From: a virus
Virus record (IMG/VR): IMGVR_UViG_3300002542_000002
Strand: one strand, 5' to 3'
DNA length: 46,935 nucleotides
This document shows positions 1 through 46,935 of this stretch, piece after piece. How positions within the stretch are numbered: position 1 is the first letter of the stretch; the number at the start of each line of letters is the position of its first letter. The position numbers and the translations under genes were made by a program. The notes below the pieces were generated by a model that ran no database searches, had not been told where the DNA came from, and saw only the letters and a list, made by a program, of their open reading frames with translations.

Positions 1-101
1 CCAATATTCGGATTTTTATTTTTCTGCTTGGTATCCCGCCGTCGGACGAGTCGCATTTTCGGCTCATTTTTACGAATGTTTACCGACGAGTAGCGGGATA
101 A
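1..101. repeat. terminal direct repeat, left copy (identical to 46835-46935)
   Basis: Base-by-base comparison: 1-101 equals 46835-46935 (ccaatattcgg...tagcgggataa). Indicates a circular or circularly permuted assembly, or a short DTR. Confidence 0.95.
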
Positions 102-109
102 AGTTAGCG
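7..109. repeat. structured 103-nt repeat unit R1 (candidate pac/TerS-binding element or ncRNA)
   Basis: Aligns without gaps to 177-279 (70/103 identical by hand count). Conserved blocks are TTGGTATCCCGC, TCGCATTTT, TTTTTACGAAT, AGCGGGATAA and TTAGCG. Long inverted repeat TATCCCGC-CGTCGG ... CCGACG-agta-GCGGGATA. Confidence 0.7.
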
Positions 110-127
110 TTTTTCCTGTTTTTTGCT

Positions 128-175
128 GCTATCCCGCTCCCAATTTGAACATTTTCTCGCATTTTCGCCTCGATC
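128..175. repeat. partial (half) copy of the R unit
   Basis: Contains TATCCCGCTCC (130-140) and CTCGCATTTTCG (156-167) but no matching GCGGGATA arm. Confidence 0.45.
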
Positions 176-176
176 A

Positions 177-279
177 TTCGGCTTTTTGTCCTCTTTCTTG
201 GTATCCCGCTCGGGAGCAGATCGCATTTTATCTCGTTTTTTACGAATATTTTCGAGCAAAGAGCGGGATAATATTAGCG
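177..279. repeat. structured 103-nt repeat unit R2
   Basis: Second copy of R1, 170 nt downstream. Arms TATCCCGCTC / GAGCGGGATA (10 bp) enclose the same conserved TCGCATTTT and TTTTTACGAAT blocks. Confidence 0.7.
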
Positions 280-353
280 ATCCGGTTATTTTGCCTCCGG
301 ATCGGATCCTTACGAAATAATAATTACACTCGCTTTTCATGCTGTCGCTCCTT

Positions 354-1664
354 TTATGCTACTTGTTCCATAACGAAATATCTCAATGAGTCCATACAAT
401 GGTCGTTTTGCTTGAGCGGCGCATCCTCGCCTCTCTCGCTTGCTTTCGGATCCCAAACATATAAACCAAACTCTTTGATCGTTTCCTTACAATCCTCCAT
501 GACAAAGATTTGATCGTTATAAATCATATTTGCGGTTTCGGCGATCCCTTCGAGTACGTCGTTTTTCGCTGGAGTAACCGTATAGCGGCGGCGCTCAAAC
601 TCTCGAGCGAGCGCTTTAGCGGATGGATCGAGTATGATCTCGGATACCCTAACGCCTCGAGGGAGCCATTTCTCGAAATCGTCTACATACTCGGTTACAC
701 TTTTCGAGATCTTGCTCTCCCTCCCGCTATAATAGTACTCCTTGAGGATCACGAAATATTTTTTCTTCCCATCCCGGTACTCGCCGATTAAGAGGAAAAC
801 GGTAGCGTTTTGATCCCCATAGTCGCCCGATACATAGTAGCGGCGAGGCTCTCCCGGCGGTTTTTCCTTGAGTACATGCTTTTCCGGTTTGAAACATTGA
901 TAAATAACGCCGTCGGCAATAACCCATTTACCGAGGATCATTCTTTGATAACGAGCGGGGATCCCTGCATATTGCCGCTTTAGACGCTCTTTGTACTCCT
1001 CGGATAGAGCGAGGTTATCCTCAAGCGTAAACTTATGACGGCTCCAATCCTTCTTCTTTTTCTCGTTCTCTACATAGTTGGTTAAAAGCCAATGTTTCGG
1101 ATGATCCGGGTTTGTCGTCGCTAAAAGGATCGACTCCTTATACGATAAACGTCCTACTAACTCATCGAAAACCTCTTGCGGGATGAGCGAGATCTCGTCT
1201 ACGTAAGCGATCATAAGCGTCGATCCACGTACCCGGCGGATCGCATCTTTATTTTTAGCTCCGACGATAAACATCCGCCGCTTTCGAGCCTCTCCGGTTT
1301 CTCGATCGGTGTAAAAAACGTCGATATACTTGCCTTTTACATAGTGATACGATCCCTCGCCTAAAATATCCATGAAGTCATTTAGAAAGTTTCGCTCGAT
1401 TGTGTCCGGCGTTTGCCCGAGGAGCATACCGTTTCCTCTTGGGAGAGTAGTTATCTTCTCAATGAGCCAAGCTAAGGATAGAAACGTTTTTCCGGAGCGG
1501 ATCGATCCCTCCCACAAGTTAAACGGCTTATTACTCTCGAATAGCGCTTTTAACTGATTGAAGGTAAACGGCTTTATCCGGAATTGATCGAGATCCATCC
1601 CCAGCTCTTTCGCTAACTCCCTCCAGCTCGGGAGCTTCTTTTCCGGATGTATTAGCCCGATCAT
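354..1664 (-). CDS. terL: terminase large subunit (PBSX/Terminase_3-like)
   Basis: 436-aa ORF with P-loop WEGSIRSGKTFLS and Walker B-like STLMIAYVDEIS. C-terminal nuclease half (...QNDHCMDSLRYF). Lies 4 nt downstream of terS. Confidence 0.93.
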   Translation of the reverse strand: MIGLIHPEKKLPSWRELAKELGMDLDQFRIKPFTFNQLKALFESNKPFNLWEGSIRSGKTFLSLAWLIEKITTLPRGNGMLLGQTPDTIERNFLNDFMDILGEGSYHYVKGKYIDVFYTDRETGEARKRRMFIVGAKNKDAIRRVRGSTLMIAYVDEISLIPQEVFDELVGRLSYKESILLATTNPDHPKHWLLTNYVENEKKKKDWSRHKFTLEDNLALSEEYKERLKRQYAGIPARYQRMILGKWVIADGVIYQCFKPEKHVLKEKPPGEPRRYYVSGDYGDQNATVFLLIGEYRDGKKKYFVILKEYYYSGRESKISKSVTEYVDDFEKWLPRGVRVSEIILDPSAKALAREFERRRYTVTPAKNDVLEGIAETANMIYNDQIFVMEDCKETIKEFGLYVWDPKASERGEDAPLKQNDHCMDSLRYFVMEQVA

Positions 1665-1667
1665 CGC

Positions 1668-2424: not shown

Positions 2425-2430
2425 ATCCGC

Positions 2431-2655: not shown

Positions 2656-2657
2656 AC

Positions 2658-3208: not shown

Positions 3209-3263
3209 GTGTACCGCTCCCCTTTCGTTTATTTTCTTGGCGATAATATCCTTTACGACTCTA

Positions 3264-4031: not shown

Positions 4032-4727
4032 TTATAAGCCGAGCCGGATCTTAATCTCGTCGATAACGCTCTCGTAATCGTCGCCATGAGTCGCCTTGAT
4101 CTCTTGGATCCATGTATTATAAACGTCGGCATTTACCATAAACTCGTATTTTCCGATCTTGAAAAATACCTCTTTCGGCGGTTTTTCTTCTTGAGGCTCC
4201 TCGTATGGTAGCTCCTCCGGCTCCGGATCCTCTTTTTCGATCTCTCCCGGATCCGATCCGCCTCCCAGCTCGTCGAAATCGGAGGTATCCATCTCTAATT
4301 GATCGAGATCATCTAACCCGGCGAGCAAGCTATCGAGATCCTCCTCGTCGAAACCTGTAAGCTTTAGCTCCGGCGTTTCTAACTCTTGGACGAGTTGAGC
4401 GAGTTTATCGAGATCCCACTCCGAGCCGACTTTAGGGTTATTAAGTGTAATGTTTAACGCTTTTTCCTTCTCGAGCGGGAGATCGACTACCGATACTTTT
4501 ACCTTTTGGATCCCCTCGTCGAGATACATATAATATCTTTGATGACCGCCGACGATGTTCCCGGTACGTTTGTTCCATACGATCGGGAGTACTTCCCCAA
4601 ACTCCATAAGGGAAGCTTTTAGCTTTTCGTACCCTTTATCTCCCCGGCGGAGGATCTTTCTCGGGTTGTATTCGGCGGGTTTGAGATCTTTTATATCGAC
4701 GGTTTGCATTTCTATCGCTCTAATCAT
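4032..4727 (-). CDS. ParB N-terminal (ParB/Srx nuclease-like) domain protein with acidic C-terminal half
   Basis: 231 aa. DIKDLKPAEYNPRK ... IVGGHQRY motifs are typical of the ParB-like domain. Residues ~120-190 are strongly acidic (DEEDLDSLLAGLDDLDQLEMDTSDFDE...). Confidence 0.7.
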   Translation of the reverse strand: MIRAIEMQTVDIKDLKPAEYNPRKILRRGDKGYEKLKASLMEFGEVLPIVWNKRTGNIVGGHQRYYMYLDEGIQKVKVSVVDLPLEKEKALNITLNNPKVGSEWDLDKLAQLVQELETPELKLTGFDEEDLDSLLAGLDDLDQLEMDTSDFDELGGGSDPGEIEKEDPEPEELPYEEPQEEKPPKEVFFKIGKYEFMVNADVYNTWIQEIKATHGDDYESVIDEIKIRLGL

Positions 4728-4749
4728 AATAATAACTCCTTTCCAATGT

Positions 4750-4794
4750 AAAAAGGCGCTTTATCTCCCCCTTACATAGAGATAAGCGCCTTTT
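4750..4794. terminator. strong bidirectional-looking terminator hairpin
   Basis: GGCGCTTTATCTC (4755-4767) pairs with GAGATAAGCGCC (4779-4790). An A-run lies before it and a T-run after it, so a U-tract is present in both orientations. Confidence 0.7.
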
Positions 4795-5081
4795 GATATT
4801 GAGGGATAACTCCGGTACTCACTCCGCAAACAGGCAAGCAAAAAACAGAGCTTCCCGGTTAGACTCTACCCTCGAGAGCCTCCTCTAAGCTAATTTATAG
4901 AGATCTTAGAGGTATCTCTATTACTCACTCCTTGTTACGCTCGTTAAATAACGAGGAGCGGTACCCTGCTTATACGATAACATATCCGCCGCCTTTTTTG
5001 CTGGGAGGATATGAGCGGCGCTACCCATATCTCCCCGATTCCTTATCGTTATAGGGTTAATTTTGTCTTTTTAACCGTTTT
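4795..5081 (-). other. non-coding, structure-rich island (candidate ncRNA, leader or ori)
   Basis: No ORF of 60 aa or more in any frame. Multiple mutually exclusive hairpins and pseudoknot-type complementarities. Direct repeat GGAGTGAGTA x2 on the minus strand. Only one GATC in the 4741-5081 island. Confidence 0.4.
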
Positions 5082-9988: not shown

Positions 9989-10282
9989 TTATTCGTTTTG
10001 CGCTTTCTTGTTGCCTTTCGCTAACTTTTTCCACTTTTTAACCTCATCCTCGAGCTTGGCGATCTTAAGATCGTACATCGTAAGTTTTCGCTTGAGGTAT
10101 TTATTTTCTTTCGCTATATCCGCATCGACTTTTTTCGGAGCTGGAGCGGCGGTTTCTAAATAATTCGCCGCCTCCTCAAATAATTCGATATAAGGCTTTA
10201 GTTTGTTTGTTCTTACTTGAGTTTGAGCGGAAACGATCTCTTTAAGATCCGCTACTCCTTTTTTAAATTGATTGATATCCAT
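9989..10282 (-). CDS. hypothetical coiled-coil protein (97 aa)
   Basis: Preceded by the conserved AGGAGGAGTTTTAAAATG initiation cassette. Confidence 0.6.
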   Translation of the reverse strand: MDINQFKKGVADLKEIVSAQTQVRTNKLKPYIELFEEAANYLETAAPAPKKVDADIAKENKYLKRKLTMYDLKIAKLEDEVKKWKKLAKGNKKAQNE

Positions 10283-10301
10283 TTTAAAACTCCTCCTTTT
10301 T

Positions 10302-11636
10302 TTAGCTTGCTTCGCCGAAACGGCGCTCGAGGTTAAGAAACTTATTCCACTCTTTGATATAGGCGAGCTGTACCGTTCCGGTCGATCCTTCCCTATTTTT
10401 AGCGATAATAAGCTCGATTATGTTTTTATTTTCCGTATCCTTGTCGTAATAATCATCCCGGTAAAGGAAAATAACGATATCGGCATCTTGTTCGATCGAG
10501 CCGCTATCCCGGATATCCGATAGCATCGGTCGCTTATCTTGCCGCTTTTCGACTTCCCTCGAGAGCTGGGATAAGGCGATAACCGTACAATTAAGATCAT
10601 TAGCCATATTTTTAAGCGCCCGAGAGATCTCGCTTATCTCTAAGTTACGGTTTCCTTGATAGTTGCGGCTCGGTTTAATGAGCTGGAGATAGTCGATAAC
10701 TACGATATGATGTTTATCCGGATAGTCTTTCATGTTTTCCCTTACTCTCGCCCGGATCTCCTCGACGGTGATCGTACTCTCGTCGCAAATATCGAGATTT
10801 TCCTCCCATTGACTCATAACGCTAAGCGCATGAGAGTATTTCGTCCAATCCTCATCATCGAAATACTCGATCGGATTTTTTACTTTGCGTCCGTCGATAT
10901 TGCCTAAGCATGATATCATCCGGTTTGTTAATTGATCCTCGCCCATTTCCAGCGAGAAGATAGTAGCGAAAACCTCCTCATCTTTACCGAGCGATCTTTC
11001 GATAGTGTTATTAACGATATTTAAAGCGAAAGCCGTTTTCCCTACCGACGGTCGAGCGGGTACGATGATGAGCTTTTTCTTTTCCAATCCCTCGAGCATG
11101 ATATCGAGATCATTAAATCCGGTTTCGGCTCCGACTAATCCTCTTTTCATGTTTTCCATTCGACTATATTTATCGATTAAATGCTCCCTTATGGAAAAGC
11201 GTTTTCTCCGCCGCCCGGTATTCTCGATCTCCTCGATCTCTTGGCGGATTTTAGCGTCAATCTCGTCATCATCGAGGTTAGTAAGCGCCTTTTGATAAAC
11301 CTTATACTTTTCCCGCCGCTTCCAATTATCGATAACGATACCCTCGTAAAACTTGATATTAGCGGTAGTCGGTACCGAGATCATCATATCGGAGAGGTAG
11401 CTTATCCCTCCCACTTCATTAACCCGCTCTTTTGCGATCTCCGCAATCGCTACGAGATCGATCGGGATCTCTTTTCGTTGTAGCTCTCTCATCCATTTAA
11501 AAAGCTTGATATGCTTAGGATCGGAGAAATGTTCCGGCTTAATAATGAGATCGTTTATAAGATCCGGCTCGAGTAAAACCGAGCCGAGTACCATTCTTTC
11601 CGCCTCGAAATTGTAAAACATAGCGATAGCATCCAT
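10302..11636 (-). CDS. dnaB: replicative DNA helicase, DnaB family (SPP1 G40P-like)
   Basis: 444 aa. N-terminal DnaB domain (FEAERMVLGSVLLEPD), Walker A PARPSVGKTAFALN, FSLEMGEDQLTNRM and VVIDYLQLI motifs. Confidence 0.95.
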   Translation of the reverse strand: MDAIAMFYNFEAERMVLGSVLLEPDLINDLIIKPEHFSDPKHIKLFKWMRELQRKEIPIDLVAIAEIAKERVNEVGGISYLSDMMISVPTTANIKFYEGIVIDNWKRREKYKVYQKALTNLDDDEIDAKIRQEIEEIENTGRRRKRFSIREHLIDKYSRMENMKRGLVGAETGFNDLDIMLEGLEKKKLIIVPARPSVGKTAFALNIVNNTIERSLGKDEEVFATIFSLEMGEDQLTNRMISCLGNIDGRKVKNPIEYFDDEDWTKYSHALSVMSQWEENLDICDESTITVEEIRARVRENMKDYPDKHHIVVIDYLQLIKPSRNYQGNRNLEISEISRALKNMANDLNCTVIALSQLSREVEKRQDKRPMLSDIRDSGSIEQDADIVIFLYRDDYYDKDTENKNIIELIIAKNREGSTGTVQLAYIKEWNKFLNLERRFGEAS

Positions 11637-11639: not shown

Positions 11640-11972
11640 TTACGCTCTCCCCTTTGCTTGCTTGATAAAGTCCGGCATACGATCCTCCGGGATGTATTTA
11701 AGCGCTCCTTTTTTCATACCCTCCAGCCGTAAAACCTCGCCTTTATCTAAGTATCCCGAGTTAGCGGCGAAAGTCGGTACTCCCCGGAGATCCGCAATAG
11801 ATGGAGGGTACTTTTCCCGCTGGATATGGTTTTTAAGGTTTTCGAGTACGGTATAAAAATCTTGATCCTTTAACATCTCGCTCCATAGGTCTACCTTTTC
11901 CTCCGTTACCTCAAACATGTCATAAGCGTTCGCTATGAGGGAGAAAAGCTTGATTGTTTCCACCCGATCCAT
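11640..11972 (-). CDS. helicase loader/inhibitor, SPP1 G39P-like
   Basis: 110 aa. ETIKLFSLIANAYDMFEVTEEKVDLWSEMLKDQDF...KYPPSIADL matches the G39P-family N-terminal pattern. Immediately upstream of dnaB. Confidence 0.8.
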   Translation of the reverse strand: MDRVETIKLFSLIANAYDMFEVTEEKVDLWSEMLKDQDFYTVLENLKNHIQREKYPPSIADLRGVPTFAANSGYLDKGEVLRLEGMKKGALKYIPEDRMPDFIKQAKGRA

Positions 11973-12897
11973 TTTTACGTACCTCCTTCTCCATCATTTC
12001 TCGGAGGAGATCATTTTTCCTTGCTCCCCGAGATTGATAGCCGCCGCTACCGTATCCCGCTCTCGCTCTCGCCTTTTTCTCAAGCTCGGCTTTCCGTTGC
12101 ATATACAAAACATCGTACTGTTTCCGGAGTTTTTCCGTACTTAGGATATTCGTTTTCCAAAAATCATGATTTTGACACCAATCGATGATAGCCGCTATCT
12201 CCTCCGGATCCCGGTTATCTCTCTCGATCATTAAACGGATCACATCCGCCCATTTTTGCGGGTTTGGTTTTTTGGCGTTAGGATTGTTTTTAAGCATCCA
12301 ATAAAAGAGCCTTGCCGCTAACTTATACTCGATATCGTCTTTTGTATAAACCCGCTTACCTTTCTTTTTCTTAGGCTTGTCCGTTTCGACGGTTTCGGTT
12401 TCCGGCGGTAAAGCTGGAGTTAGTTCTTTGTTATTTTCCTCCCCGGCTTTGATAAATTCGCTCATTTCCTCCGATACCTCCTCGTTTTGTTGCTCCGGCT
12501 CGGTATCGATCGGCTCATCATCGGTATGTAATATCTCCGGATCCGTTTGGTATTCGTTCCATTGTAAGATAGTTACGATCGAGTACTTTCGGCTCGGAGC
12601 GGTTTCGATTTGAATGTTACCCATTTTCTCGAGTTTTTTAAGCCAATTCCATAGAGTCGTATCGCTTACCCGATTTTTCGGCGCTAAGCCGTCGTTATAT
12701 TCGTTAAAAAGGGATTTTCTCCCGGTTACTAACTGTCCGGCTTTAAGATCGACTGTTTCCCCCTCCCATTCGATCGATCTTTCCGAGTGAGAGGCTTTCA
12801 TGAGGAGTAAGATCCATAAGCGGAGGAGATCCGGATCTCTGAAAACCTCGCTATATTGTAATTTTCTATGTAGCCGAAACCATCCCTTAGCGCTCAT
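11920..12897 (-). CDS. replication initiation / replisome organiser protein (DnaD-like C-terminal domain)
   Basis: 325 aa. Winged-helix-like N-terminus (WFRLHRKL...VTGRKSL...TLWNWLKKLEKMG), acidic linker, and C-terminal DnaD/phage-conserved domain (KLAARLFYWMLKNNP...WADVIRLMIERD...IIDWCQNHDFW). Confidence 0.75.
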   Translation of the reverse strand: MSAKGWFRLHRKLQYSEVFRDPDLLRLWILLLMKASHSERSIEWEGETVDLKAGQLVTGRKSLFNEYNDGLAPKNRVSDTTLWNWLKKLEKMGNIQIETAPSRKYSIVTILQWNEYQTDPEILHTDDEPIDTEPEQQNEEVSEEMSEFIKAGEENNKELTPALPPETETVETDKPKKKKGKRVYTKDDIEYKLAARLFYWMLKNNPNAKKPNPQKWADVIRLMIERDNRDPEEIAAIIDWCQNHDFWKTNILSTEKLRKQYDVLYMQRKAELEKKARARAGYGSGGYQSRGARKNDLLREMMEKEVRKNGSGGNNQAFLPHSERL

Positions 12898-18858: not shown

Positions 18859-18970
18859 TGATTTTATTTCCCGATCATTTCCCGATCGAAAAGGAGGCGG
18901 TAAACATGGTACCTCTCGGGTACATCCTTGTAATCATCGGCGGCATTATCGTTATGGTTAAAGCCTTTTA

Positions 18971-27150: not shown

Positions 27151-27159
27151 ACCATAACC

Positions 27160-27212
27160 TTACCTCCCTCGTATTCTATCGATCTATACCTAGTATAACG
27201 TAAGGGAGGTAA
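27160..27212 (-). promoter_or_regulatory. SD-sequestering hairpin in front of the holin gene
   Basis: Perfect 10-bp inverted repeat. On the mRNA, TTACCTCCCT (from 27203-27212) pairs with AGGGAGGTAA (from 27160-27169). The latter is the holin SD, 9 nt upstream of ATG 27150. The loop is 33 nt. Confidence 0.5.
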
Positions 27213-27215
27213 ATT

Positions 27216-31108: not shown

Positions 31109-31316
31109 TTTCAAAACTCCATCTTATCTCGGATACATGTCCGATATGAGAAGTCGCTACCGTTCCGCCTTGTAGCATAATGTCCGTAATGTATAACGCT
31201 CCCTCGATTTGAACATTTTCCGCCGCTACTTCGACTCGGATCGAGTCTAATTTTTGCGAGCTATCGATCGGGATCTTTAATACAATCGGCTGGAAAGAGC
31301 CTTTATCCAGCGCCAT
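31101..31316 (-). CDS. small tail-module protein (71 aa), paralogous to the N-terminus of the next gene
   Basis: Start at ATG 31316 with SD AAGGAGG 8 nt upstream. DSIRVEVAAENVQIEGALYITDIMLQGG. Confidence 0.5.
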   Translation of the reverse strand: MALDKGSFQPIVLKIPIDSSQKLDSIRVEVAAENVQIEGALYITDIMLQGGTVATSHIGHVSEIRWSFENA

Positions 31317-31400
31317 TATAACCGCCTCCTTATTGTAAGAAAGGCGCTCCATCTTAACGATAAGCGCCTTTCTCTTTTAATTTAATTATACCTCGTTTCT

Positions 31401-34016: not shown

Positions 34017-34032
34017 TTAAAAACCTCCTCCT

Positions 34033-34788
34033 TTATAGCCATGTATCCCGATAAATCACTCGTATATTAGAGATCGATCCGGATACGACGGAGATTGTAT
34101 TATCGCCGTTTTGCAAAGTAAAGTATTTTTCCTCGTCGAGATACTCGTAAGCTCCCTCGCTATCGAGGAGGCTTGTTTGCTCCTTACTATTTATTGTATA
34201 GACTCCAGCCGGAGAGTTACTACTAAAAGCGATCTCCTCGGTCGTTTGGTCGGGATGAGTACATCTAATAACCGCCGCTCCCACTCCTTTTGTGATGATG
34301 AGAGTCGGCTTTGCTACGTGAGATCCGGCGTTATTGGCGATAATCTCACTTGTACCGGATAGATCTTTCTCCGCTACCGAGTAGGTAAATGGATCGTAAC
34401 ATATAAAATTAAGTGTAAACTCGTCCGAGATCAAGCCGAGCCGAGTCGGAGAAAAGTTTTCCGAGAGTCGAGCGAAATACATTTTATCCGGCTCGTCATC
34501 GAAAATAAGCTCCTTAGATCCGAGCCTCGGATTAAGTACCGCTGCTATATTGCGGAGCTTATTCATATAGTCGGCTTTGCTCGTCGCTCCTAATACTCTA
34601 ACCTTTACCGGGATGATCTTAGGCTTATAGCGTACTCCGAAATCGTAAGCTCCATCGATCCCCGGCGTTTCCTCTGTTTGCTCCTCGATCTCCGGCATAA
34701 GCGGGATCTCCTTATCGATAACCATAAGGGAAAGGGAGGAGCTTGTAACTCCCCCGAAAGTAAAGCCATCATGGAAAGTATAAGCCAT
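34033..34788 (-). CDS. distal tail protein (Dit)
   Basis: 251 aa, immediately after the tape measure. MAYTFHDGFTFGGVTSSSLSLMVIDKEIPLMP... is a typical siphovirus Dit N-terminus. Confidence 0.75.
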   Translation of the reverse strand: MAYTFHDGFTFGGVTSSSLSLMVIDKEIPLMPEIEEQTEETPGIDGAYDFGVRYKPKIIPVKVRVLGATSKADYMNKLRNIAAVLNPRLGSKELIFDDEPDKMYFARLSENFSPTRLGLISDEFTLNFICYDPFTYSVAEKDLSGTSEIIANNAGSHVAKPTLIITKGVGAAVIRCTHPDQTTEEIAFSSNSPAGVYTINSKEQTSLLDSEGAYEYLDEEKYFTLQNGDNTISVVSGSISNIRVIYRDTWL

Positions 34789-34803
34789 CGATTAAACCTC
34801 CCT

Positions 34804-37800
34804 TTATACGGTTTTTCTACCTCTTGCCCGGTCGTAATCTTGTTGCAAACGGAATAAGCCGTTAGAGATAACCCGAGCATCGGTTTCGTCGTTTTGATAG
34901 TAGTTTTCGATATACATAAGCGGCGCTTGATAGTTAGTAACGATCCCAGCGCCTTCGCTCGAGTCGCCGCTATTATCCGGTTTCGGTAGCTGGGAAGCTA
35001 TTACCTCTCCGGTCATCGCTCCGATCCCCGCCGGATCCGGCTCGATCATAGCGCTCTCGGCTAAGGCTTGAGTCGTTTTAGCTACGAGTTTCCGACTTTG
35101 ATCGATACCGATCGCCAATCCTTCGCCGAGATAGTTACCGATATCTCTAAATACCCGGCTCGGAGAGTGGATACCGAAAAATCCTGTTACTTTATCCTTG
35201 ATCGACTTAGCGAAAGAGGTTACTTTATCTCGGATCCATCCCGCCATACTCGAGATACCGTTCCACAATCCCCGAACGATATTCGCTCCGACACTTACGA
35301 GGTTTATCCCCTTGAAAGCGGAGATGATCCGGGAGGCGGTATTTCTTACGATACTCATCACATTGTTTAAGCCGCTCGAGAAGATCGATTTTAAGGAGCT
35401 TATGACATTCGATACGATCCCCTTGATCGCCGAAAAGTTTCCGGTAAAGATCGCCTTGATCGCTTGAATGATCCCGGAGATGATCGTCTTAGCGGCGTTA
35501 AACCCGGTACTTATGATCGAGCGTACCGCCGATATCCATCCGGACACGAAAGAGCGGATCGCATTAAAGACTCCGGTCACGATGGATTTTATGTTATTTA
35601 CGGCGTTGCTTACTCCGGTTTTGATAGCGTTCCATACCGTTATAACCGTACTTTTCAAGCCGTTTAATACGGATTGTACGGTAGACTTGATAGCGTTCCA
35701 TATTGTGAGTATCGTATTTTTGGTAGCGGAAAGTACGTTCGATATCCCGCTCTTGATACCGTTCCACGTATTAACCGCCGCCGTCTTTAAGCCGTTCCAT
35801 ATCGAAACTGCCGTACTCTTGATCCCATTCCATAGGTTAGATACCCAGCTTTTAAAGCCGCTCCATGCATTAGATATTGCTTGGATCGTTTGAGGTACTA
35901 CTTTCTTGAGCCATTCAAAGACGGCGATCGCTCCGCTCTTGATAGCGCTCCACGCTGAAAGAACGATATTTCTAAATGTTTCGCTCTTTTGCCATGCTGT
36001 ATATAGAGCGACTCCTAACCCGACGAGCAAGGCGATGATTAAACCGATCGGGTTAAGCGACATAACGAGGTTAAGCAAGCGGGTAGCTACGGCAAGCGCT
36101 TTTGTTCGAGCGATTTGTAAGAGCATCGGCGCTTGTAAGGCGAGCAAGTAAGCCTTATACGCCAAAAATCCCGCTAAAATACCGTTCATTATCGGTATAA
36201 AGCCTTCCCACTCGGTAAACTTAGCGACAATCGTCGTTATACCGTTAATAATCGGCGCTAAGACTGATCCGAGAGCGGTAAAAGCGACGACTAATACGGA
36301 TCCTATCCAGCCTCCGGCGTTTTTAAAGACGATAAAAAGGTTTTCAAAGGTCGGCTTAAACTTGTTGATCGTATCAAAGATCACATTAAAAGCCGTTCCT
36401 AGAGCCTCTTTTATCGCTGGGAGGTTTTGTCGTAAGCTATTTATCATATTGTTAATCGTCGGCATCACTTTTTGCTGTACGGAGTCGATAACCTCGACTT
36501 GTAACATCCGTCCGACTCCCCGCAAAGCTTCGCCTAAGCTGTTAAATCTTACTTCTCCCATCTTTTGGAGAGTATCGGCGCTCATATTCGCCTCATCTCG
36601 TACCTTACCGAGAGCGAGGATCGTTTTGTACTCTAAGTCCTCGAATTGAGTACCCATTAAGGCGACTCCGATAGCGTTACGCTTAACCGGATCCTCGATC
36701 TCGCCGAGCTTTTGGAAAACGGTTTGTAATGCTTTTTGAGCGCTCGATCCGCCTTTAGCGAAAGCTTGCTCCATTTGAGTAGCATCCAGCCCGAGAGCGG
36801 AAAAAGCCTCATGAGTAGACTTCGATTGATCCTTTACCCGGATCCCCAGCTCTTTGATAGCATCCCCGACTTTATCGAGGTTAAATGCTCCCGCTTCCGC
36901 TCCGGCGGCGAGTACGTTAAACATACCCTCGGCATCGAAACCGAGTTGTTTAAAATAAACGGCGTACTCGTTAAACGTATCGAGCATATCGCCGCTCTTA
37001 TCGAGTCCTTTTTGCGCTCCTTGAGCGATGAGAGTAAACGCTTGCTCTCCGGTTATTCCAAACTGCTTCATTAGCGTATCGGCTGTCCGAGTCGTTTCCG
37101 ATACGTCATATTGGAAAGTATCCCGGAGTAATAAGGCGTGTTTCGTCATATCCTCGAGAGCCTTACCCGCTAACCCGGTATTATTGGCGGTTAGAGCTAG
37201 AGCCTCTCCGATATCGGCGAAACTCTCGCCATAGTTAGCGGCATAGATATTTTTAAGGGTTTGCCCGAGTTGTTTCGTTTCCTCATCGGTAGCTCCGGTT
37301 TGTGCGACGACTCCGTTTAATGCTCTTTGATAATCGTCGGTTACTTTGATCGCTCCAGCTATCCCGGTACCGATCCCGACGAAAGCGGTAGCTCCGATCG
37401 TTTTTAATTTTGTGAATGTATTTTGATAGTTTTTTAAGGCTTGCTCCGCTTCTTTCGTCGCTCCGCTCGCATTTTTCCCGAAATCTTGGATCGCCTTGTC
37501 TGCTTCTCGGATCGCTTGATCCAATCCTCCGAGATTGACATTATCCCCGAGCTTGTCGATCGTTTTTTTCGCTTTATTTACCGACGTTTGAAGCTCGAGC
37601 ATAGTAGAAACGGAAAGCCGCCCGAACGTACTTAGGTCGCTTTCCGCTTTTGTGATCGCCTTATCCAATCCGCTAAACATATCGGAGGATCCCGCTCCAG
37701 CGTTTTTAAGAGCGGAGCGGAGGTTAGTAAGGCTCTTTCGCATACCGTCAAAGGCTTGGTTAGCCTCGGCGGTAGCTTTAGCGCTATCCTTCCCGATACT

Positions 37801-37893
37801 GTTTATCTCTTGTTTCAATCCAGCAACGGCGGATTTAAAACTACTGATTTGAGCCGAAAATCTCGCTCTTAGCTCGCTAACGACTCCCGGCAT
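34804..37893 (-). CDS. tail tape measure protein
   Basis: 1029 aa, alpha-helical. TP901-type core (ATDEETKQLGQTLKNIYAANYGESFADIGEALALTANNTGLAG...), central hydrophobic segments and an 11-residue W/F periodic repeat block. Confidence 0.92.
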   Translation of the reverse strand: MPGVVSELRARFSAQISSFKSAVAGLKQEINSIGKDSAKATAEANQAFDGMRKSLTNLRSALKNAGAGSSDMFSGLDKAITKAESDLSTFGRLSVSTMLELQTSVNKAKKTIDKLGDNVNLGGLDQAIREADKAIQDFGKNASGATKEAEQALKNYQNTFTKLKTIGATAFVGIGTGIAGAIKVTDDYQRALNGVVAQTGATDEETKQLGQTLKNIYAANYGESFADIGEALALTANNTGLAGKALEDMTKHALLLRDTFQYDVSETTRTADTLMKQFGITGEQAFTLIAQGAQKGLDKSGDMLDTFNEYAVYFKQLGFDAEGMFNVLAAGAEAGAFNLDKVGDAIKELGIRVKDQSKSTHEAFSALGLDATQMEQAFAKGGSSAQKALQTVFQKLGEIEDPVKRNAIGVALMGTQFEDLEYKTILALGKVRDEANMSADTLQKMGEVRFNSLGEALRGVGRMLQVEVIDSVQQKVMPTINNMINSLRQNLPAIKEALGTAFNVIFDTINKFKPTFENLFIVFKNAGGWIGSVLVVAFTALGSVLAPIINGITTIVAKFTEWEGFIPIMNGILAGFLAYKAYLLALQAPMLLQIARTKALAVATRLLNLVMSLNPIGLIIALLVGLGVALYTAWQKSETFRNIVLSAWSAIKSGAIAVFEWLKKVVPQTIQAISNAWSGFKSWVSNLWNGIKSTAVSIWNGLKTAAVNTWNGIKSGISNVLSATKNTILTIWNAIKSTVQSVLNGLKSTVITVWNAIKTGVSNAVNNIKSIVTGVFNAIRSFVSGWISAVRSIISTGFNAAKTIISGIIQAIKAIFTGNFSAIKGIVSNVISSLKSIFSSGLNNVMSIVRNTASRIISAFKGINLVSVGANIVRGLWNGISSMAGWIRDKVTSFAKSIKDKVTGFFGIHSPSRVFRDIGNYLGEGLAIGIDQSRKLVAKTTQALAESAMIEPDPAGIGAMTGEVIASQLPKPDNSGDSSEGAGIVTNYQAPLMYIENYYQNDETDARVISNGLFRLQQDYDRARGRKTV
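35239..35961 (-). repeat. 11-residue (33-nt) periodic repeats inside the tape measure gene
   Basis: Residues ~645-885. W/F/L recurs every 11 or 22 aa (LWNGIKS, IWNGLKT, TWNGIKS, IWNAIKS, LNGLKS, VWNAIKT, VFNAIRS, ...). Confidence 0.8.
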
Positions 37894-37905
37894 AAAACCG
37901 CCTCC

Positions 37906-38256
37906 TTATTGTTTATTTTTCGGTTTCGCTCTAAATTCATCCAGCTTGGAGAAATCCCATTCGAGCTTTTTGTGAGGGTTGCCGAGTAAACGCCCTCCGG
38001 TTTCTCGAGGTTTGATCTTGTCATAAAACTTTTTCCGCTGTTTCGGATCGACTCGAGAGTTAGCTCCGAAAAATAGTAAATGAAATTGTTCTAAGCGGCG
38101 ACTCTCCCGCTCTTGCCGCTCCATAGCGAGATAATTAAGCGCCTCGAGTACCGGAGTTTCTAATACCTCGGATCTCCCTCCTAAGATTGGGGATAAGCGG
38201 TAGACAATAAGCTCGAAAGGATCGAGCTTTATTTTACTACCTTGAACCCTCCCCAC
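37906..38256 (-). CDS. tail assembly chaperone, T-part (expressed as G-T fusion by -1 frameshift)
   Basis: The ORF lies in the -1 frame relative to 38229-38696 and overlaps it. It has no convincing SD of its own. The reading frame is open from the slippery site. Confidence 0.7.
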   Translation of the reverse strand: MGRVQGSKIKLDPFELIVYRLSPILGGRSEVLETPVLEALNYLAMERQERESRRLEQFHLLFFGANSRVDPKQRKKFYDKIKPRETGGRLLGNPHKKLEWDFSKLDEFRAKPKNKQ

Positions 38257-41212: not shown

Positions 41213-42208
41213 TTAAGCATCGATCCAAGCTACGGCGCTCGGGATCGCTAACGCTGGGAAGATCGTTTCTCCGACATATACCGCTTGCATCGGAGGGTTT
41301 GTTTCTTTGATCTCTGTTACGACGTACATACCCGGCTTATAGTTATTTTCGACTGTAATACCTTGATATAAGTTACCGAGCGTACCGTTTGGCAAGAAAA
41401 CGATCCGGCGCTCCGGTAAAAGTCTAACCTCTCCCTCGTTCGTTTCCACTACATCGTCATTAATCACGAAACGAGGCAAGCCTAAAGACTCGAACAAGGT
41501 TTGTAATTGATCCCGAGTAACGATACGAGCATCGGTCGGAGATCCGTAAATATGGTTTTTAACTTGAGCGTTAGCGAGGATATCGTTTAGCATCGCCGTA
41601 CTCATGTGCATCTCGCCCGGGTTTTTCTGTTTGTTTGCGTTTTTATAGATTTGTACCATTTGTTGTAAAACGGTTAGCGGCTGGGAGTTTGTATGGTCGG
41701 AGAAAGCATCCGAGCCGACAAGCGTTAATTTATTCCCCGCTGGTACTCCGAAATCGATATCGAGCTTGATATCGTTCTCGTTGTATTGTAGTTTCCCGGT
41801 ATAGATCGCTTGCGCTCGCATCCATTCCTCTACATCCCGGACACCCTCGACGAGTTCATCCGTTTGATCGTAAATGTACTCTACTACGGATTGTTGTTCC
41901 TCGTCGCTACGAGGTTGGTTAAAGCGGAGTAGCTCCTCCTCGTCTAAGCGAAAACCATGTTGTACCTTAGCGACTTCTCCGAAAGCTTTTTCTAAGCCTT
42001 GCTTAGTACGGAGCGGCGCTCCAGCGTTAAAACCTGTAATAGAAGCGGTACGAGCATATTTTCCGTTAATAACGTTATAGCTAAACTTGATATCATAAAC
42101 CGGCTTGATCGGCATAAAACGCTCTAAAATACGTGTTTTTGCCGGAGGGAGATTTTCGATATATCCTTGAAACGCTTCTCTCGAAAACTCGGCTAAATGT
42201 AAAGGCAT
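41213..42208 (-). CDS. major capsid protein (lambda gpE-like class by context)
   Basis: 331 aa. Position follows the scaffold and a small decoration-type protein. Followed by a terminator, as expected for a highly expressed gene. Confidence 0.8.
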   Translation of the reverse strand: MPLHLAEFSREAFQGYIENLPPAKTRILERFMPIKPVYDIKFSYNVINGKYARTASITGFNAGAPLRTKQGLEKAFGEVAKVQHGFRLDEEELLRFNQPRSDEEQQSVVEYIYDQTDELVEGVRDVEEWMRAQAIYTGKLQYNENDIKLDIDFGVPAGNKLTLVGSDAFSDHTNSQPLTVLQQMVQIYKNANKQKNPGEMHMSTAMLNDILANAQVKNHIYGSPTDARIVTRDQLQTLFESLGLPRFVINDDVVETNEGEVRLLPERRIVFLPNGTLGNLYQGITVENNYKPGMYVVTEIKETNPPMQAVYVGETIFPALAIPSAVAWIDA

Positions 42209-43441: not shown

Positions 43442-43620
43442 AGGGTTACTTACTCCTTTTCTATTAATCTCTTTCCGCTTATTGCTTGAAAGCTTGGAGG
43501 TAAGCGGTAAGGTCGAAACCCTCGCAAGCCCGAAAGTGTATCTCCTATCTATTCGGAGCCGATAGGGAGGCTATCGCTTACATGTTTATTATACCCGATT
43601 TTTAACAATAGAGGAGCGGC

Positions 43621-44715: not shown

Positions 44716-44772
44716 TTGTATAACCTCCTAAAAAGCGGGATACCCTAAAAAGGGATGATCCCGCCGCTTGTT

Positions 44773-46419
44773 TTATTCTTCTTGATCGGTATTATCTTGG
44801 TTTTCTCCAGTTCCAGCGGCTCCAGCCTCTCCGCCTCCGCTAACGAGCGGAGTATCTCGGTTATCTAAGAGGTTGGATAGCGTTCGTCTACCTCGAGCGA
44901 GGCTCGTACTATCATCGGATAGCTTTTCCGACTCGATAAGAGCTACCTCATCCTCGATACTTGCCTCGCTATCGTTAGGTTTGATCCGCTTAACCGTTTC
45001 ATAGCGGGACTGTATACCTTTCTCGAAAGCGAGCGCCTCTTGCTCGAGTAGCTCTCTCCGGGAGATTGGGATCATATCGAGCAAGGCGATATCCGGCTTT
45101 TCTACCGGGAGATCCGGCAAGTCGCCTAATTCTCTCTCCAGCCATAGAGCCGACTCGAAAAGGTTTTGTAAAAAGCGGATGTATTCTTTTGCGAGCTTTT
45201 CCGCTTTGACGATCGACGTAAAGAGATCGTAAAACTTAGCGACTCCCGAGATCGCTCCGCCGCTGGAGCCTCCTTCGAGGTAAAAGTCTACCGCTTTCTC
45301 GCTCGTTTGCGTTTCAACGAACATTAGTTTCATGAGATCCTTTACCCATTCGATATTACCGATCTTAGAAACGTCGATTTGTATAACCTCGATCGCCTTT
45401 CCGTTTTCGTCCATTTGTACGATCTCGAGGTTTCGAGCATCGATCTTATTTTCATCGCCGTAAGTATCGTAAGCGATATCTTGGAGCTTTTTCATAATAC
45501 CCTTAGTAACCGCTATCCGAGGCTTTCCGTTACGCTCGAATACAATAGCGGAGCGGGTAAGAGTCCAATTTATCTCCTCTTGCTTGCTTTCTTGTCCAGC
45601 TAAAGCGGAGCGCCCGAGCGGATCGTTAAAGGTTTTATTATTCGCCCAATATTCGATAAAACCTCGAGAGCGGTTAGGGTACTCGGTTGTTAGCTCCTCA
45701 AGCCCGAGCTTTTCTTTCGCTTCCTCCTCGTCTACCTCGGTAAGAGATCCGTCATCCTCGATCTTATATAAAAAATGCTGTACGATGAGCTTGCTTTTCC
45801 GCTTTTTCGTTTCCGGATCCCGCTCCTTAGAGCGCTCGATCCGCTCCCGGTATATGTGGAGGTAAGACTCAAGCTCGCCTTCCTCGTTTTCGTATTCCTC
45901 CTCGAGAGCGATATCCGCTCCTCTGCCGTCGTCGTGAGGAAAGTACACATCCCGAGCTTTCATTTCGATAACCGGAATATCGTCGGCATCCTTCATCACT
46001 ACTCCGACGAGTCCGCCGTCTATTTGATGTTGGAGGATATTTGTATAATGCTCAAAGGCGAGGTTACTGTTTTCCTCGATCTCCTCGAGGATCTGTCTTT
46101 GTAACTCTTGTACCTCCGGCGGATGATCCATATCGTTAGCGGGAGATACTCGCCCGATCGCCCGAGATACGAGCATCGCTGGGATCTCCGGGATAAGTTT
46201 CGATACGTTAGCGATAATATACGGTACTTTGTTTCGTGTAACCTTCCCGGTTTTCGAGATCTCCATTAAGTCGGATATGATCTCGCCCTCCTCCGCTAAG
46301 GCTTTCGCCCGAGGGAAAAGCTTTGCATGTTTGCCGTCGTATAGATCCCGGTAAAAATAAACGTCGCCATGTTTTTTCCGGATTACTTCTTTATCCCATC
46401 TTGTCCATTTTATCGTCAT
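44773..46419 (-). CDS. portal protein (SPP1 gp6-like)
   Basis: 548 aa. Position lies between the terminase region and the MuF-like gene. N-terminal ...YFYRDLYDGKH motif and acidic C-terminus. Confidence 0.8.
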   Translation of the reverse strand: MTIKWTRWDKEVIRKKHGDVYFYRDLYDGKHAKLFPRAKALAEEGEIISDLMEISKTGKVTRNKVPYIIANVSKLIPEIPAMLVSRAIGRVSPANDMDHPPEVQELQRQILEEIEENSNLAFEHYTNILQHQIDGGLVGVVMKDADDIPVIEMKARDVYFPHDDGRGADIALEEEYENEEGELESYLHIYRERIERSKERDPETKKRKSKLIVQHFLYKIEDDGSLTEVDEEEAKEKLGLEELTTEYPNRSRGFIEYWANNKTFNDPLGRSALAGQESKQEEINWTLTRSAIVFERNGKPRIAVTKGIMKKLQDIAYDTYGDENKIDARNLEIVQMDENGKAIEVIQIDVSKIGNIEWVKDLMKLMFVETQTSEKAVDFYLEGGSSGGAISGVAKFYDLFTSIVKAEKLAKEYIRFLQNLFESALWLERELGDLPDLPVEKPDIALLDMIPISRRELLEQEALAFEKGIQSRYETVKRIKPNDSEASIEDEVALIESEKLSDDSTSLARGRRTLSNLLDNRDTPLVSGGGEAGAAGTGENQDNTDQEE

Positions 46420-46460
46420 GCTCCTTTTACCTCCCTTTCCCTAAGATGATAAGCCGCCGC

Positions 46461-46541
46461 TTATCTTTTCTTTTGTACTTTGACCGATAAGAACATAAGC
46501 TCGGTAAAGACGATCGCTATTAATACGGATATCCAGCCCAT
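46461..46541 (-). CDS. possible 26-aa hydrophobic peptide
   Basis: Hand-translated: MGWISVLIAIVFTELMFLSVKVQKKR. SD GGGAGGAGG 10 nt upstream. Could be fortuitous. Confidence 0.25.
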   Translation of the reverse strand: MGWISVLIAIVFTELMFLSVKVQKKR

Positions 46542-46607
46542 ACGGTCGGTACCTCCTCCCTTTCAGACTCCGAGCCTTTCTCTTGGTGATCCCTCATTCA
46601 TTATAGA

Positions 46608-46823
46608 TTAAGCATCATAAACGGTATATCCCTTCTCCTCCGCTAAACGTCTAAGCTCTTTTTTCGCCTCGTCGTGATCCTCTTTCGTTTCGCCTTGAGT
46701 GTACGCTTTTAGTTTGTTTTCTATCTTTAGCTCATACCGCTTTTCGATCTCGTTCCAATAGATAAAAGCCATACCGTAAAGATCGCCGCCTAATGTTTTT
46801 CTTTTTCGCTTATCTTTTGCCAT
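46608..46823 (-). CDS. small basic protein (71 aa) between the repeat region and the portal
   Basis: Start at ATG 46823 (MAKDKRKRKTLGG...) with SD GGAGG 8 nt upstream. The track ORF extends into the terminal repeat. Confidence 0.6.
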   Translation of the reverse strand: MAKDKRKRKTLGGDLYGMAFIYWNEIEKRYELKIENKLKAYTQGETKEDHDEAKKELRRLAEEKGYTVYDA

Positions 46824-46834
46824 CGTTTCCGCCT

Positions 46835-46935
46835 CCAATATTCGGATTTTTATTTTTCTGCTTGGTATCCCGCCGTCGGACGAGTCGCATTTTCGGCTCA
46901 TTTTTACGAATGTTTACCGACGAGTAGCGGGATAA
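46835..46935. repeat. terminal direct repeat, right copy (identical to 1-101)
   Basis: Identical 101 nt. Contains most of repeat unit R1. Confidence 0.95.

Follow-up and report, generated by a model that had tools for sequence, protein, structure and literature searches.

The virus genome examined here raises the question of how a virulent phage from which half of the six-letter palindromes have been removed can carry the four-letter palindrome GATC at fourfold its chance frequency. The window, meaning the whole stretch of 46,935 nt that was analysed, represented a complete virulent siphovirus of 46.8 kb that had assembled as a circle. It is a phage of thermophilic Bacillaceae and a relative of Geobacillus phage TP-84. 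Its completeness as a siphovirus was indicated by the terminase, portal, major capsid, tape measure, tail and LysM endolysin genes (Table 1). Positions 1-101 exactly duplicated 46835-46935, a circular-assembly overlap that leaves a unique genome of 46,834 bp with the GATC count unchanged at 715, and the window was circularly permuted relative to contigs L002-L004. A phage primase was not found in the window. The ParB-like protein matched phage ParB-methyltransferase fusions over their N-terminal ParB portion alone and was without a methyltransferase domain. A methyltransferase signature was absent from all window ORFs of at least 200 aa, in agreement with the initial annotation in which no methyltransferase gene had been recognised. 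The cassette at 23484-23840, which is held in common with TP-84 gp80 (46766-47121; 79% nucleotide and 81% amino acid identity), was inverted relative to the remaining genome. The amino acid identity of other genes was 23-60%.

Table 1. Features of the window and of its GATC distribution
Feature	Coordinates	Strand	Remarks
Terminase large subunit	354-1664	-	siphovirus marker
ParB-like protein, 231 aa	4032-4727	-	weak Pfam ParB_N; phrog_620; phrog_498 positions 33-179 of 633
Proposed GATC-poor island 1	4741-5081		1 GATC; Poisson P=0.034 per window; ~5 such windows expected genome-wide
DnaB-like helicase	10302-11636	-	
G39P-like loader	11640-11972		precedes DnaB-like helicase
DnaD-like organiser	11920-12897		precedes DnaB-like helicase
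Direct repeat ATTTCCCGATC x2	18866-18887		directly upstream of ribosome-binding site; contains the GATC sites at 18873 and 18884; read from sequence
118-aa protein, phrog_24885 (proposed GATC-poor gene)	23484-23840	+	PHROG match; sole sizeable plus-strand gene; 2 GATC; P=0.09; ~12 such windows expected
LysM endolysin	25677-26684		siphovirus marker
Tape measure	34804-37893		siphovirus marker
Major capsid	41213-42208		siphovirus marker
Proposed GATC-poor island 2	43442-43620		0 GATC; P=0.065; ~17 such windows expected
Portal	44773-46419		siphovirus marker

An exact count gave 715 GATC sites in 46,935 nt, or one per 66 nt, while 173 were expected from base composition and 180 after strand symmetrisation. 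This corresponds to an excess of 4.0-4.1 fold, and GATC ranked first in over-use among the 136 strand-symmetric 4-mers. The 4-5 fold excess initially estimated from hand counts was thus confirmed, although the density of one per 55 nt was too high. Three of the four sample counts were correct (13 in 4201-4740, 10 in 10021-10800 and 13 in 31401-32000) while 1-960 contained 15 sites rather than 16, and the three sites placed within 18870-18890 proved to be two, at 18873 and 18884. The excess remained under the codon-usage and dinucleotide controls that the initial annotation had called for. First- and second-order Markov models predicted 305 and 535 sites, respectively. Coding sequences held 649 sites compared with 375±13 under a synonymous-codon shuffle that preserves the proteins and codon usage (z=21), and a swap null with codon usage fixed gave 451±12 against 639 observed. 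Every gene in the window showed the excess, which was present in all three codon phases (1.43-, 2.1- and 1.9-fold) and in intergenic DNA (3.0-fold by base composition and 1.41-fold by second-order Markov).

Within the limits set by the proteins, 57% of the synonymous GATC opportunities were filled in the window, rising to 90% for Asp-[LPHQR], compared with fillings of 13-16% for neutral relatives and 0-1% for GATC-purged phages. Before ATC, 66% of 4-fold codons ended in G, compared with 30% before other codons starting with A, and GAG was chosen 56 out of 56 times before ATC. The dipeptides capable of encoding GATC were themselves enriched (D-[LPHQR] 1.29, [GR]-S 1.56) compared with the purged phages (0.85-1.03 and 0.86-0.96), a shift that points to selection rather than mutation bias. 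Hexamers containing GATC included GGATCC (86), CGATCG (59) and AGATCT (28). Other words were also favoured, including AGCG/CGCT (z=24) and CGAG/CTCG (z=20) to a degree similar to GATC and the heptamers CCGCTCC (43) and GGAGCGG (27), and CpG rho was 1.57.

A generic bias of Bacillaceae chromosomes was not borne out as a source of the excess. GATC had a median of 0.91-fold and a maximum of 1.95-fold across 77 Bacillaceae chromosomal loci, and plasmids of the host species were at 1.24- and 0.86-fold. Among the phages the distribution was bimodal. TP-84 (4.06-fold), PK2.1 (4.20-fold) and BpsM-61 (3.21-fold) were flooded with GATC, which was the top-ranked 4-mer in each, while the sister phages S4-3, PBC5 and GBK2 were purged to 1, 7 and 2 sites. 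GATC was unenriched in milder or temperate relatives. PM1 and D6E were near an observed to expected ratio of 1, and GATC was at 0.50-0.57-fold in Geobacillus phages that encode their own Dam and at 0.5-0.6-fold in other G. thermodenitrificans phages (PT9.1, NIIg9.7 and PK5.1). The publication describing TP-84 counts 743 GATC sites, lists no methyltransferase and does not present the sites as an excess (PMC5889276).

TP-84 (Saundersvirus Tp84), PK2.1 and Bacillus phage vB_BpsM-61 resemble the window as 46-48 kb virulent siphoviruses with unidirectional genes, structural, tail, lysis and replication modules in a common order (25-60% amino acid identity), an equal per-phase GATC excess and GATC saturation of 48-59%. 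The window differs in sharing nucleotide similarity in patches only, which places it outside the genus of TP-84, and in missing the ThyA-like and RecB-like genes that TP-84 carries. Their word biases were otherwise unrelated, as the 4-mer profiles of the window and TP-84 were uncorrelated (r=-0.11) and z-profile correlations of the window were 0.00 with TP-84 and 0.03 with BpsM-61, and yet the two carry the same DNA-level flood of GATC. The biases of TP-84 and BpsM-61 were correlated (r=0.56), so that the GATC-rich phages represent in effect only two independent lineages.

The window was devoid of CGCG, GGCC and 32 of the 64 six-bp palindromes including TGATCA (0 copies where 10.7-14 were expected, P ~2e-5), and was purged of most CAG/CAC words, while TP-84 is purged of GAG/CTC words and GGATCC. 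Absent six-bp palindromes numbered 18-27 in TP-84, PK2.1 and BpsM-61 and 5-11 in temperate relatives. This strong, strand-symmetric loss of short palindromes is like the restriction-site avoidance of virulent phages, but the window over-uses the classic target GATC most of all words. A survey of RM-site avoidance gives GATC as under-represented only (PMC6286503).

We give about even odds to the explanation that selection on nucleotide sequence produced the excess of GATC as a DNA-level trait of the whole genome, with a GATC-specific push added to passive compensation, rather than as a collection of functional sites. The purge of restriction-type words would squeeze the genome into a small vocabulary of safe words, of which GATC would be one since hosts evidently leave it uncut. 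In line with this, unmethylated, PCR-assembled TP-84 genomes are infectious and reboot in the host (PMC12205831). A host without GATC restriction, the first of the options initially offered, is therefore supported as a necessary condition by these genomes and by 715 sites in a phage without a methyltransferase, but alone it would put the ratio close to 1, where PM1 and D6E lie, and not at 4. An avoidance-only simulation reproduced the real 4-mer landscape with r=0.88 in the window (0.72-0.92 overall) and showed that between about a fifth and a third of the GATC excess comes from passive compensation. Predicted and observed enrichments were 1.40- and 2.72-fold for the window, 1.27- and 2.73-fold for TP-84 and 1.07- and 2.23-fold for BpsM-61, leaving GATC residuals of z=2.1, 2.5 and 3.6. 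In the window this residual of about 2 SD equalled that of CGAG, so GATC is no lone outlier there. The simulation recovered 35% of the AATC compensation in the GATC-free phage S4-3, and with known compensation under-recovered the passive share may exceed the estimate.

Atop compensation, a push specific to GATC of roughly twofold, common to TP-84-like phages, would drive the word to its level of synonymous saturation together with the excess of GATC-capable dipeptides. This suggests that GATC density itself is under direct positive selection, giving a flooded state that would be the alternative to the purged state (0-7 sites) of sister phages whose hosts restrict GATC. A putative GATC-reading host or phage factor would reward density; the phage genome yielded neither a reader nor a writer of GATC. 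The sites are interchangeable and accessible, and most likely unmodified.

That GATC could be a pure by-product, the commonest safe word left by a restriction-driven purge on hosts that do not cut it and with no selection for GATC itself, appears rather unlikely. The avoidance-only model fits the 4-mer profile, raises GATC in the right direction and recovers the Asp GAT preference (0.73 against 0.75 observed); AGCG, CGAG and GAGC are as strongly enriched as GATC in the window, and the method captures just 35-77% of the known passive compensation in S4-3. However, the model falls short of the observed GATC enrichment in all three phages, no uncapped word lies further out than GATC in TP-84 and BpsM-61, and the Ile ATC preference of 0.58-0.76 is missed (0.39-0.42 in the model). 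Enrichment also does not scale with compression, as BpsM-61, which lacks just 18 palindromes and has a z-dispersion of 4.9, shows the same 1.7-fold excess over the shuffle, and GATC comes first in both the window and TP-84 from wholly different sets of avoided words. The shift toward GATC-capable dipeptides likewise counts against it.

Modification was considered improbable as the driver. Under this explanation GATC would be modified by a host Dam/DpnII-class or unrecognised phage enzyme, dense modified sites would be protective and selection would raise the motif. Enzymes of the BclI type cut at TGATCA and are blocked by Dam methylation, so the purge of this hexamer from the window means that m6A cannot be constant. 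GGATCC and AGATCT are purged in TP-84 and PK2.1 and AGATCT in BpsM-61, and with one or two NGATCN hexamers lost in every GATC-rich relative, GATC in virion DNA is accessible. A GATC methyltransferase was suspected by the TP-84 authors (PMC5889276), the close relative PK2.1 has gained a beta-class N6/N4 methyltransferase of undefined specificity, and Dam genes are frequent in other Geobacillus phages (PMC10459684), a frequency which indicates that restriction and methylation directed at GATC operate in this ecosystem. Nevertheless, the window, TP-84 and BpsM-61 are without a methyltransferase, the Dam-encoding phages are depleted of GATC by about half, TP-84 DNA is cut by BglII (PMC9502220) and PCR-made TP-84 genomes are infectious. 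Protection by modification, as suggested earlier, was not supported, and neither was blanket GATC modification.

A repair or mutation drive, in which very-short-patch-type or HIP1-like repair with a GATC cytosine methyltransferase turns near-GATC mismatches into GATC, was judged highly improbable. In each of the four GATC-rich phages AATC/GATT fell short of its second-order Markov prediction (0.61-0.78) and site gains and losses between variants were chiefly GATC to AATC/GATT transitions or the reverse, but the transversion neighbour TATC was equally or more depleted (0.67-0.91). The excess was missing from host chromosomes and plasmids and from phages of the same host species, and the dipeptide shift points away from a mutation bias. 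In E. coli, VSP repair raises CCWGG and lowers its T-derivatives. The window likewise over-uses a short palindrome and under-uses the neighbouring words, but its neighbour depletion is not specific to deamination products and the pattern is absent from host DNA and co-resident phages. HIP1 (GCGATCGC), the highly iterated palindrome of cyanobacteria, is an 8-mer of host chromosomes linked to resident methyltransferases. It too is an over-represented GATC-core palindrome in genes and spacers whose copies turn over and whose function is not agreed, whereas the unit in the window is a bare 4-mer, is phage-specific and has no comparable partner in the phage or the sampled Bacillaceae chromosomes.

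Along the genome GATC spacing was geometric, with a gap CV of 0.99, seven gaps of at least 300 nt (7.1 expected) and a variance/mean of 0.84 in 500-nt windows. The GATC-poor regions singled out initially had the stated counts of 1, 0 and 2, but with this spacing their depletion is within chance (Table 1). Turnover relative to a 97%-identical variant was 8.3% for GATC and 9.5% for all 4-mers, and 6- to 10-mers were as frequent as their (k-1)-mers predict, giving no motif longer than GATC. Sites controlled through Dam, such as P1 pac and oriC-type clusters, use the same motif, but they are tightly grouped at set positions and are read via methylation state, while those of the window show neither clustering nor positional conservation and probably carry no methylation. 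Signals for packaging, origins or promoters under Dam control are thus a most implausible cause despite the one GATC pair that a direct repeat places upstream of a gene, given the random spacing, the bare 4-mer, the shifting positions, the excess in every gene and the subsistence of sister phages on 0-7 sites. A positive role, the third option of the initial annotation, is retained as selection on density and dropped in its pac-like or Dam-transcription form. Primase sites as a cause of the excess were not supported. The direct repeat itself, as read from the sequence, is possibly an operator.

The tetranucleotide GATC occurred 715 times in the window, once per 66 nt, against 173-180 copies expected from base composition (4.0-4.1x), and ranked first in over-representation among the 136 strand-symmetric tetranucleotides. 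First- and second-order Markov models gave expectations of 305 and 535 copies, respectively. A genome-wide synonymous-codon shuffle that kept both the proteins and the codon usage gave 375±13 coding sites versus 649 observed (z=21), and the excess was present in all three codon phases (1.43x, 2.1x and 1.9x). Intergenic DNA contained 63 sites against 21 expected, which was 1.41x over the second-order Markov expectation. Codon choice was context-dependent, matching the prediction of site-level selection, as G was the third base in 66% of four-fold codons before ATC versus 30% before other A-starting codons, lysine before ATC was encoded by AAG in 75% of cases versus 35% elsewhere, and all 56 glutamate codons before ATC were GAG. 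Saturation, the share of protein-permitted GATC positions that were filled, was 57%, and reached 90% for Asp before Leu, Pro, His, Gln or Arg.

Neither codon usage nor amino-acid composition can explain the excess, given the outcomes of the synonymous shuffle and the phase analysis and the surplus of sites between genes. Translational selection for ATC or GAT is likewise ruled out as other NNY codons behaved differently (GAC 24%, AAC 58%, TTC 33%), and is also contradicted by the equal excess in intergenic DNA. A synthetic or recoded sequence is ruled out by a codon usage that is biased yet natural and by the assembly of the phage in 14 independent metagenome contigs. Host-like composition was ruled out by 77 Bacillaceae chromosomal loci of approximately 20 kb each (GATC 0.50-1.95x, median 0.91; median Markov-2 ratio 0.84), including Geobacillus and Anoxybacillus loci at 0.70-1.16x, and by plasmids of G. 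thermodenitrificans (1.24x) and A. pseudofirmus (0.86x). Three further phages with G. thermodenitrificans as their isolation host had GATC at 0.50-0.63x. The excess is real, strong, phage-specific and acts at the DNA level; it neither fell to a ratio near 1 under codon control nor reflected a generic bias of host genomes. The sample counts of the initial annotation, which had claimed a 4-5-fold excess, were accurate to within one site by exact counting, while the three sites it placed in 18870-18890 are two.

The terminal 101 nt were identical at 1-101 and 46835-46935 and three further metagenome contigs of about 46.9 kb were identical to the window and circularly permuted, so the window is a circular assembly of a complete phage genome, 46,834 bp long and possibly packaged by a headful mechanism. 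Genes run almost exclusively on the minus strand, and those identified encode structural and lysis functions (terminase, portal, major capsid, tape measure and tail-tip proteins, a LysM endolysin), replication functions (a DnaB-type helicase, G39P-like loader, DnaD-like organiser, Erf and SSB), a dUTPase_2 protein, an HNH endonuclease, a 722-aa VirD4/TraG-like ATPase and a Spo0E-like protein. No tRNA was found in the window. A megablast search with 11 kb (27000-38000) gave no match to any deposited phage record, nucleotide similarity to TP-84 was confined to short blastn patches of 65-79%, and genus-level nucleotide identity with the TP-84-like siphoviruses (Saundersvirus and allies) was not reached. 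The phage is nevertheless a member of the TP-84-like group by a common order of genes and by homology of the structural, tail and replication proteins. About 33 of the 78 ORFs had TP-84 homologues at 26-59% amino acid identity (81% for the gp80-like gene), including the tail-tip module, DUF6241, the Spo0E-like protein and the 722-aa ATPase, and proteins of the window were 25-60% identical to those of the Geobacillus phages TP-84 and PK2.1 and the Bacillus phages S4-3, vB_BpsM-61 (BpsM-61), PBC5, the 022DV001 group and PM1. The gp80-like gene has the opposite orientation to the genome as a whole and is far closer to TP-84 than the remaining genes (23-60% amino acid identity), which suggests a recent exchange with Geobacillus phages. 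The closest matches of the phage SSB were chromosomal SSBs of Geobacillus and Anoxybacillus (70-71%) and one source metagenome was a thermophilic switchgrass/compost enrichment; with the Spo0E-like homologue, which implies a spore-forming host, these point to a thermophilic spore-former within the Bacillaceae, an assignment that stops short of species level.

Features of the phage genome discussed in the text, with their positions
Feature	Position	Strand	Description
Spo0E-like sporulation phosphatase homologue, 53 aa	15720-15881	-	Among the relatives compared, detected solely in GATC-rich ones
Direct repeat ATTTCCCGATC, two copies	18866-18887		Directly upstream of a ribosome-binding site; candidate operator
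gp80-like gene	23484-23840	+	Sole sizeable plus-strand gene; 79% nucleotide and 81% amino acid identity to TP-84 gp80

Word biases in phages are usually read one way, with site loss taken as escape from restriction, while in this one family a restriction-type word has been eliminated in some lineages and driven towards saturation in others. GATC was the top tetranucleotide in TP-84 (744 sites, 4.06x), PK2.1 (746, 4.20x) and BpsM-61 (582, 3.21x), which with the window phage make up the GATC-rich or flood state; the per-phase excess was as in the window, saturation was 48-59% and the intergenic Markov-2 ratio was 1.45x. The purged sister phages included S4-3 with a single site and the closest capsid protein of all, PBC5 with seven and GBK2 with two. 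GATC was at 0.39x in 022DV001 and was near or below expectation in mild or temperate relatives (PM1 1.00, or 0.95 under the codon shuffle; D6E 1.08; SPP1 0.67). The closest metagenomic relatives, three contigs with 65% capsid identity (L015-L017), lacked CGCG and GGCC entirely, carried GATC at 2.1-2.3x and probably share a host community with the window phage. GATC-capable dipeptides were over-used in the four flood phages, with D-[LPHQR] at 1.08-1.29 and [GR]-S at 1.14-1.56, and stood at expectation or lower in the purged phages (0.85-1.03 and 0.86-0.96). The nucleotide-level pressure therefore appears to extend into protein sequence in both directions, and the flood push suffices to alter which dipeptides are used. 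No gene specific to the GATC-rich phages and able to read or write GATC was found, nor any enzyme specific to the flood clade; the flood-specific genes comprised a DUF6241 membrane-type protein, the Spo0E-like protein, an XRE regulator, a 64-aa ORF and tail genes. The tail-tip genes have homologues in GATC-free GBK2 according to annotations in the BpsM-61 record. The TP-84 paper published 743 GATC sites and did not comment on the excess (PMC5889276). Beyond that count, literature searches yielded no account of GATC enrichment as a selected state in phages or of a purge-or-flood split, nor an earlier description of selected over-representation of any restriction-type tetranucleotide in a phage.

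The GATC finding belongs with restriction-driven word bias, a known phenomenon. CGCG was absent against 116-310 copies expected (167 under the codon-preserving null), as was GGCC against 116-131 (72), and under the codon-preserving null GAGCTC and TGATCA were absent against 27 and 14. Half of the six-bp palindromes (32 of 64, TGATCA included) were missing from the window, compared with 11 in PM1 and five each in D6E and PT9.1. Words containing CAG/CTG and CAC/GTG were 6- to 30-fold fewer, the trinucleotides themselves being at 0.16-0.17x, and the dinucleotide rho was 0.50 for CA/TG and 1.57 for CG. A few palindromes were abundant, namely GGATCC (86), ATCGAT (67), TCCGGA (62), CGATCG (59) and CTCGAG (54). 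Under the codon shuffle, word z-scores had a dispersion of 8.5 in the window and 2.8 in the mildly shaped PM1. The window is a restriction-shaped, palindrome-purged virulent genome, in which palindromes are under-represented more strongly than in its temperate or mild relatives. Such genomes will mislead host prediction based on k-mers and inference based on codon usage, and the purge list would serve as a signature of the restriction enzymes present among thermophilic compost communities.

Two nulls were used to separate passive compensation from selection on GATC. In a synonymous-swap null that fixed proteins and codon usage and allowed no rise in about 210 strongly depleted 4- to 6-mers, the expectation for the window rose from 375 to 451±12 versus 639 observed; the corresponding values were 379 to 423 versus 646 for TP-84, 318 to 331 versus 529 for BpsM-61, and 164 to 164 versus 156 for the control PM1. 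In a free-resampling null that started from neutral codon usage and capped 411, 333 and 121 depleted words in the window, TP-84 and BpsM-61, respectively, expected GATC rose from 228 to 311, 240 to 297 and 232 to 252; the softly depleted neighbours AATC and CATC were left uncapped since capping them forces GATC up by construction. Compensation explains a fifth to a third of the GATC excess, and possibly more, as the simulation method recovered just 35-77% of the necessarily passive compensation in S4-3. We hold with about even confidence that a restriction-driven purge would leave a safe vocabulary, to which GATC would belong where hosts do not cut it, and that some agent would then push GATC in a lineage-specific manner beyond compensation.

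The main rival, that GATC is a leftover safe word and itself under no selection, is in our judgement rather unlikely. The avoidance-only model did fit the whole 4-mer landscape (r=0.88, 0.83, 0.72 and 0.92) and free resampling reproduced the preference for GAT at Asp; AGCG/CGCT (z=24) and CGAG/CTCG (z=20) were about as favoured as GATC in the window, where the residuals of GATC and CGAG were equal, and the under-recovery in S4-3 tends the same way. The model failed, however, on the preference for ATC at Ile, and GATC exceeded it by 2.1, 2.5 and 3.6 SD in the window, TP-84 and BpsM-61, being the largest uncapped outlier in the latter two. GATC also topped both the window and TP-84 despite uncorrelated word profiles (r=-0.11; z-profiles r=0.00), with GAG/CTC words purged by TP-84 and over-used by the window. 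This recurrence across lineages with differing purge lists is the main support for a component specific to GATC. More tentatively, GATC density may be directly and positively selected in this clade of virulent Bacillaceae siphoviruses, which would hold two stable states (a purge with 0-7 sites and a flood with about 57% of positions used, dipeptides being shifted likewise) towards a 4-bp restriction target ubiquitous in the sampled Bacillus/Geobacillus phage lineages, the flood being kept by a putative factor that reads bare, unmodified GATC at a small benefit per site. If so, a GATC-reading interaction would operate in thermophilic Bacillaceae, in defence and counter-defence or in replication and recombination. 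The question is directly open to test, since TP-84 grows in culture and assembled DNA suffices to reboot it.

Protection by modification, suggested in the initial annotation, was not supported, and it is improbable that GATC density is kept because modified sites protect the DNA. No methyltransferase signature was found in ORFs of at least 200 aa (Pfam, PHROGs), so that protection by an orphan enzyme of the phage itself is unsupported; a ParB-like ORF matched the ParB half alone of ParB-methyltransferase fusions (phrog_498). The absence of TGATCA (10.7 expected from flank frequencies, P about 2e-5; 14.3 from the shuffle) indicates that window DNA is not reliably m6A-methylated, as Dam methylation stops BclI-type enzymes from cutting. 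One or two NGATCN hexamers were purged in each flood phage (GGATCC and AGATCT in TP-84 and PK2.1, AGATCT in BpsM-61), which would be needless under blanket GATC modification and counts against it. BglII cuts TP-84 virion DNA (PMC9502220) and TP-84 genomes put together by PCR can be rebooted in its host (PMC12205831). Modified bases were argued for TP-84 from a G+C content of 54.5% versus 42% by buoyant density (PMC5889276), an argument that largely dissolves since the deposited sequence (NC_041918.2) has 45.5% G+C. Possession of Dam was ruled out as a route to enrichment by the mild GATC depletion in Dam-encoding Geobacillus phages. In favour of modification, PK2.1 alone acquired a predicted beta-class N6/N4 methyltransferase.

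A repair drive creating GATC, as for the VSP/HIP1-type iterated palindromes, is very improbable. AATC/GATT, the deamination-product neighbour, was at 0.61-0.78 of the Markov-2 expectation, as such a drive would have it, but the transversion neighbour TATC was equally depleted (0.67-0.91), so the depletion is not specific to the transition neighbour. A palindrome of this type would also be expected in excess in the host genome, but GATC had a median of 0.91x in the 77 Bacillaceae chromosomal loci, and the bias was missing from co-resident phages. Every NATC word was raised in TP-84 and BpsM-61, which suggests a GAT/ATC trinucleotide unit. Primase recognition of this unit was ruled out, as the DnaG of Firmicutes, G. 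stearothermophilus among them, begins at CTA/TTA (PMC2978363). TP-84 was itself strongly depleted in host-primase start trinucleotides (CTA/TAG 0.24x, TTA/TAA 0.39x).

GATC spacing was geometric (CV 0.99; seven gaps of at least 300 nt versus 7.1 expected), with at most 15 sites in the densest 500-nt window. The three depleted islands listed in the initial annotation (4741-5081, 43442-43620 and the gp80-like gene) reflect chance, as 5 to 17 equally poor windows are expected in a genome of this size. No extended motif was found around the tetranucleotide, the sole flank effect being a preference for S-GATC-S and exclusion of T-GATC-A. Comparison with a variant of 97% identity found in a different metagenome showed 24 losses among 288 sites and 17 gains; GATC turnover was 8.3%, as against 9.5% across tetranucleotides in general. 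Every gene carried the excess. The sites are consequently interchangeable and GATC is a density trait rather than a set of signals, so that pac-, origin- or promoter-type functions, of which the pac-like and promoter-like had been suggested earlier, can be discounted almost entirely. The P1 pac element combines a GATC cluster at a fixed locus with a Dam-type methyltransferase acting on the DNA; in the window there was no such cluster and, among ORFs of at least 200 aa, no methyltransferase domain.

Several word biases were strand-asymmetric, with GGGC, CAGG and GACC present 1, 2 and 6 times on the plus strand versus 69, 20 and 41 for their complements GCCC, CCTG and GGTC. Double-strand restriction would not be expected to produce such asymmetry, which may point to a constraint on the coding strand or at the level of RNA. 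The pentamer AGCGG, the Chi sequence of B. subtilis AddAB, occurred 377 times (5.7x, compared with a median of 1.69x in the 77 Bacillaceae loci), 236 on the coding and 141 on the opposite strand, and its excess was mostly accounted for by the constituent 4-mers (Markov-3 expectation 131+206). No homologue of a Gam-like gene or of the TP-84 RecB-like gene was found among the window ORFs by tblastn comparison. The heptamers CCGCTCC and GGAGCGG were present in 43 and 27 copies.
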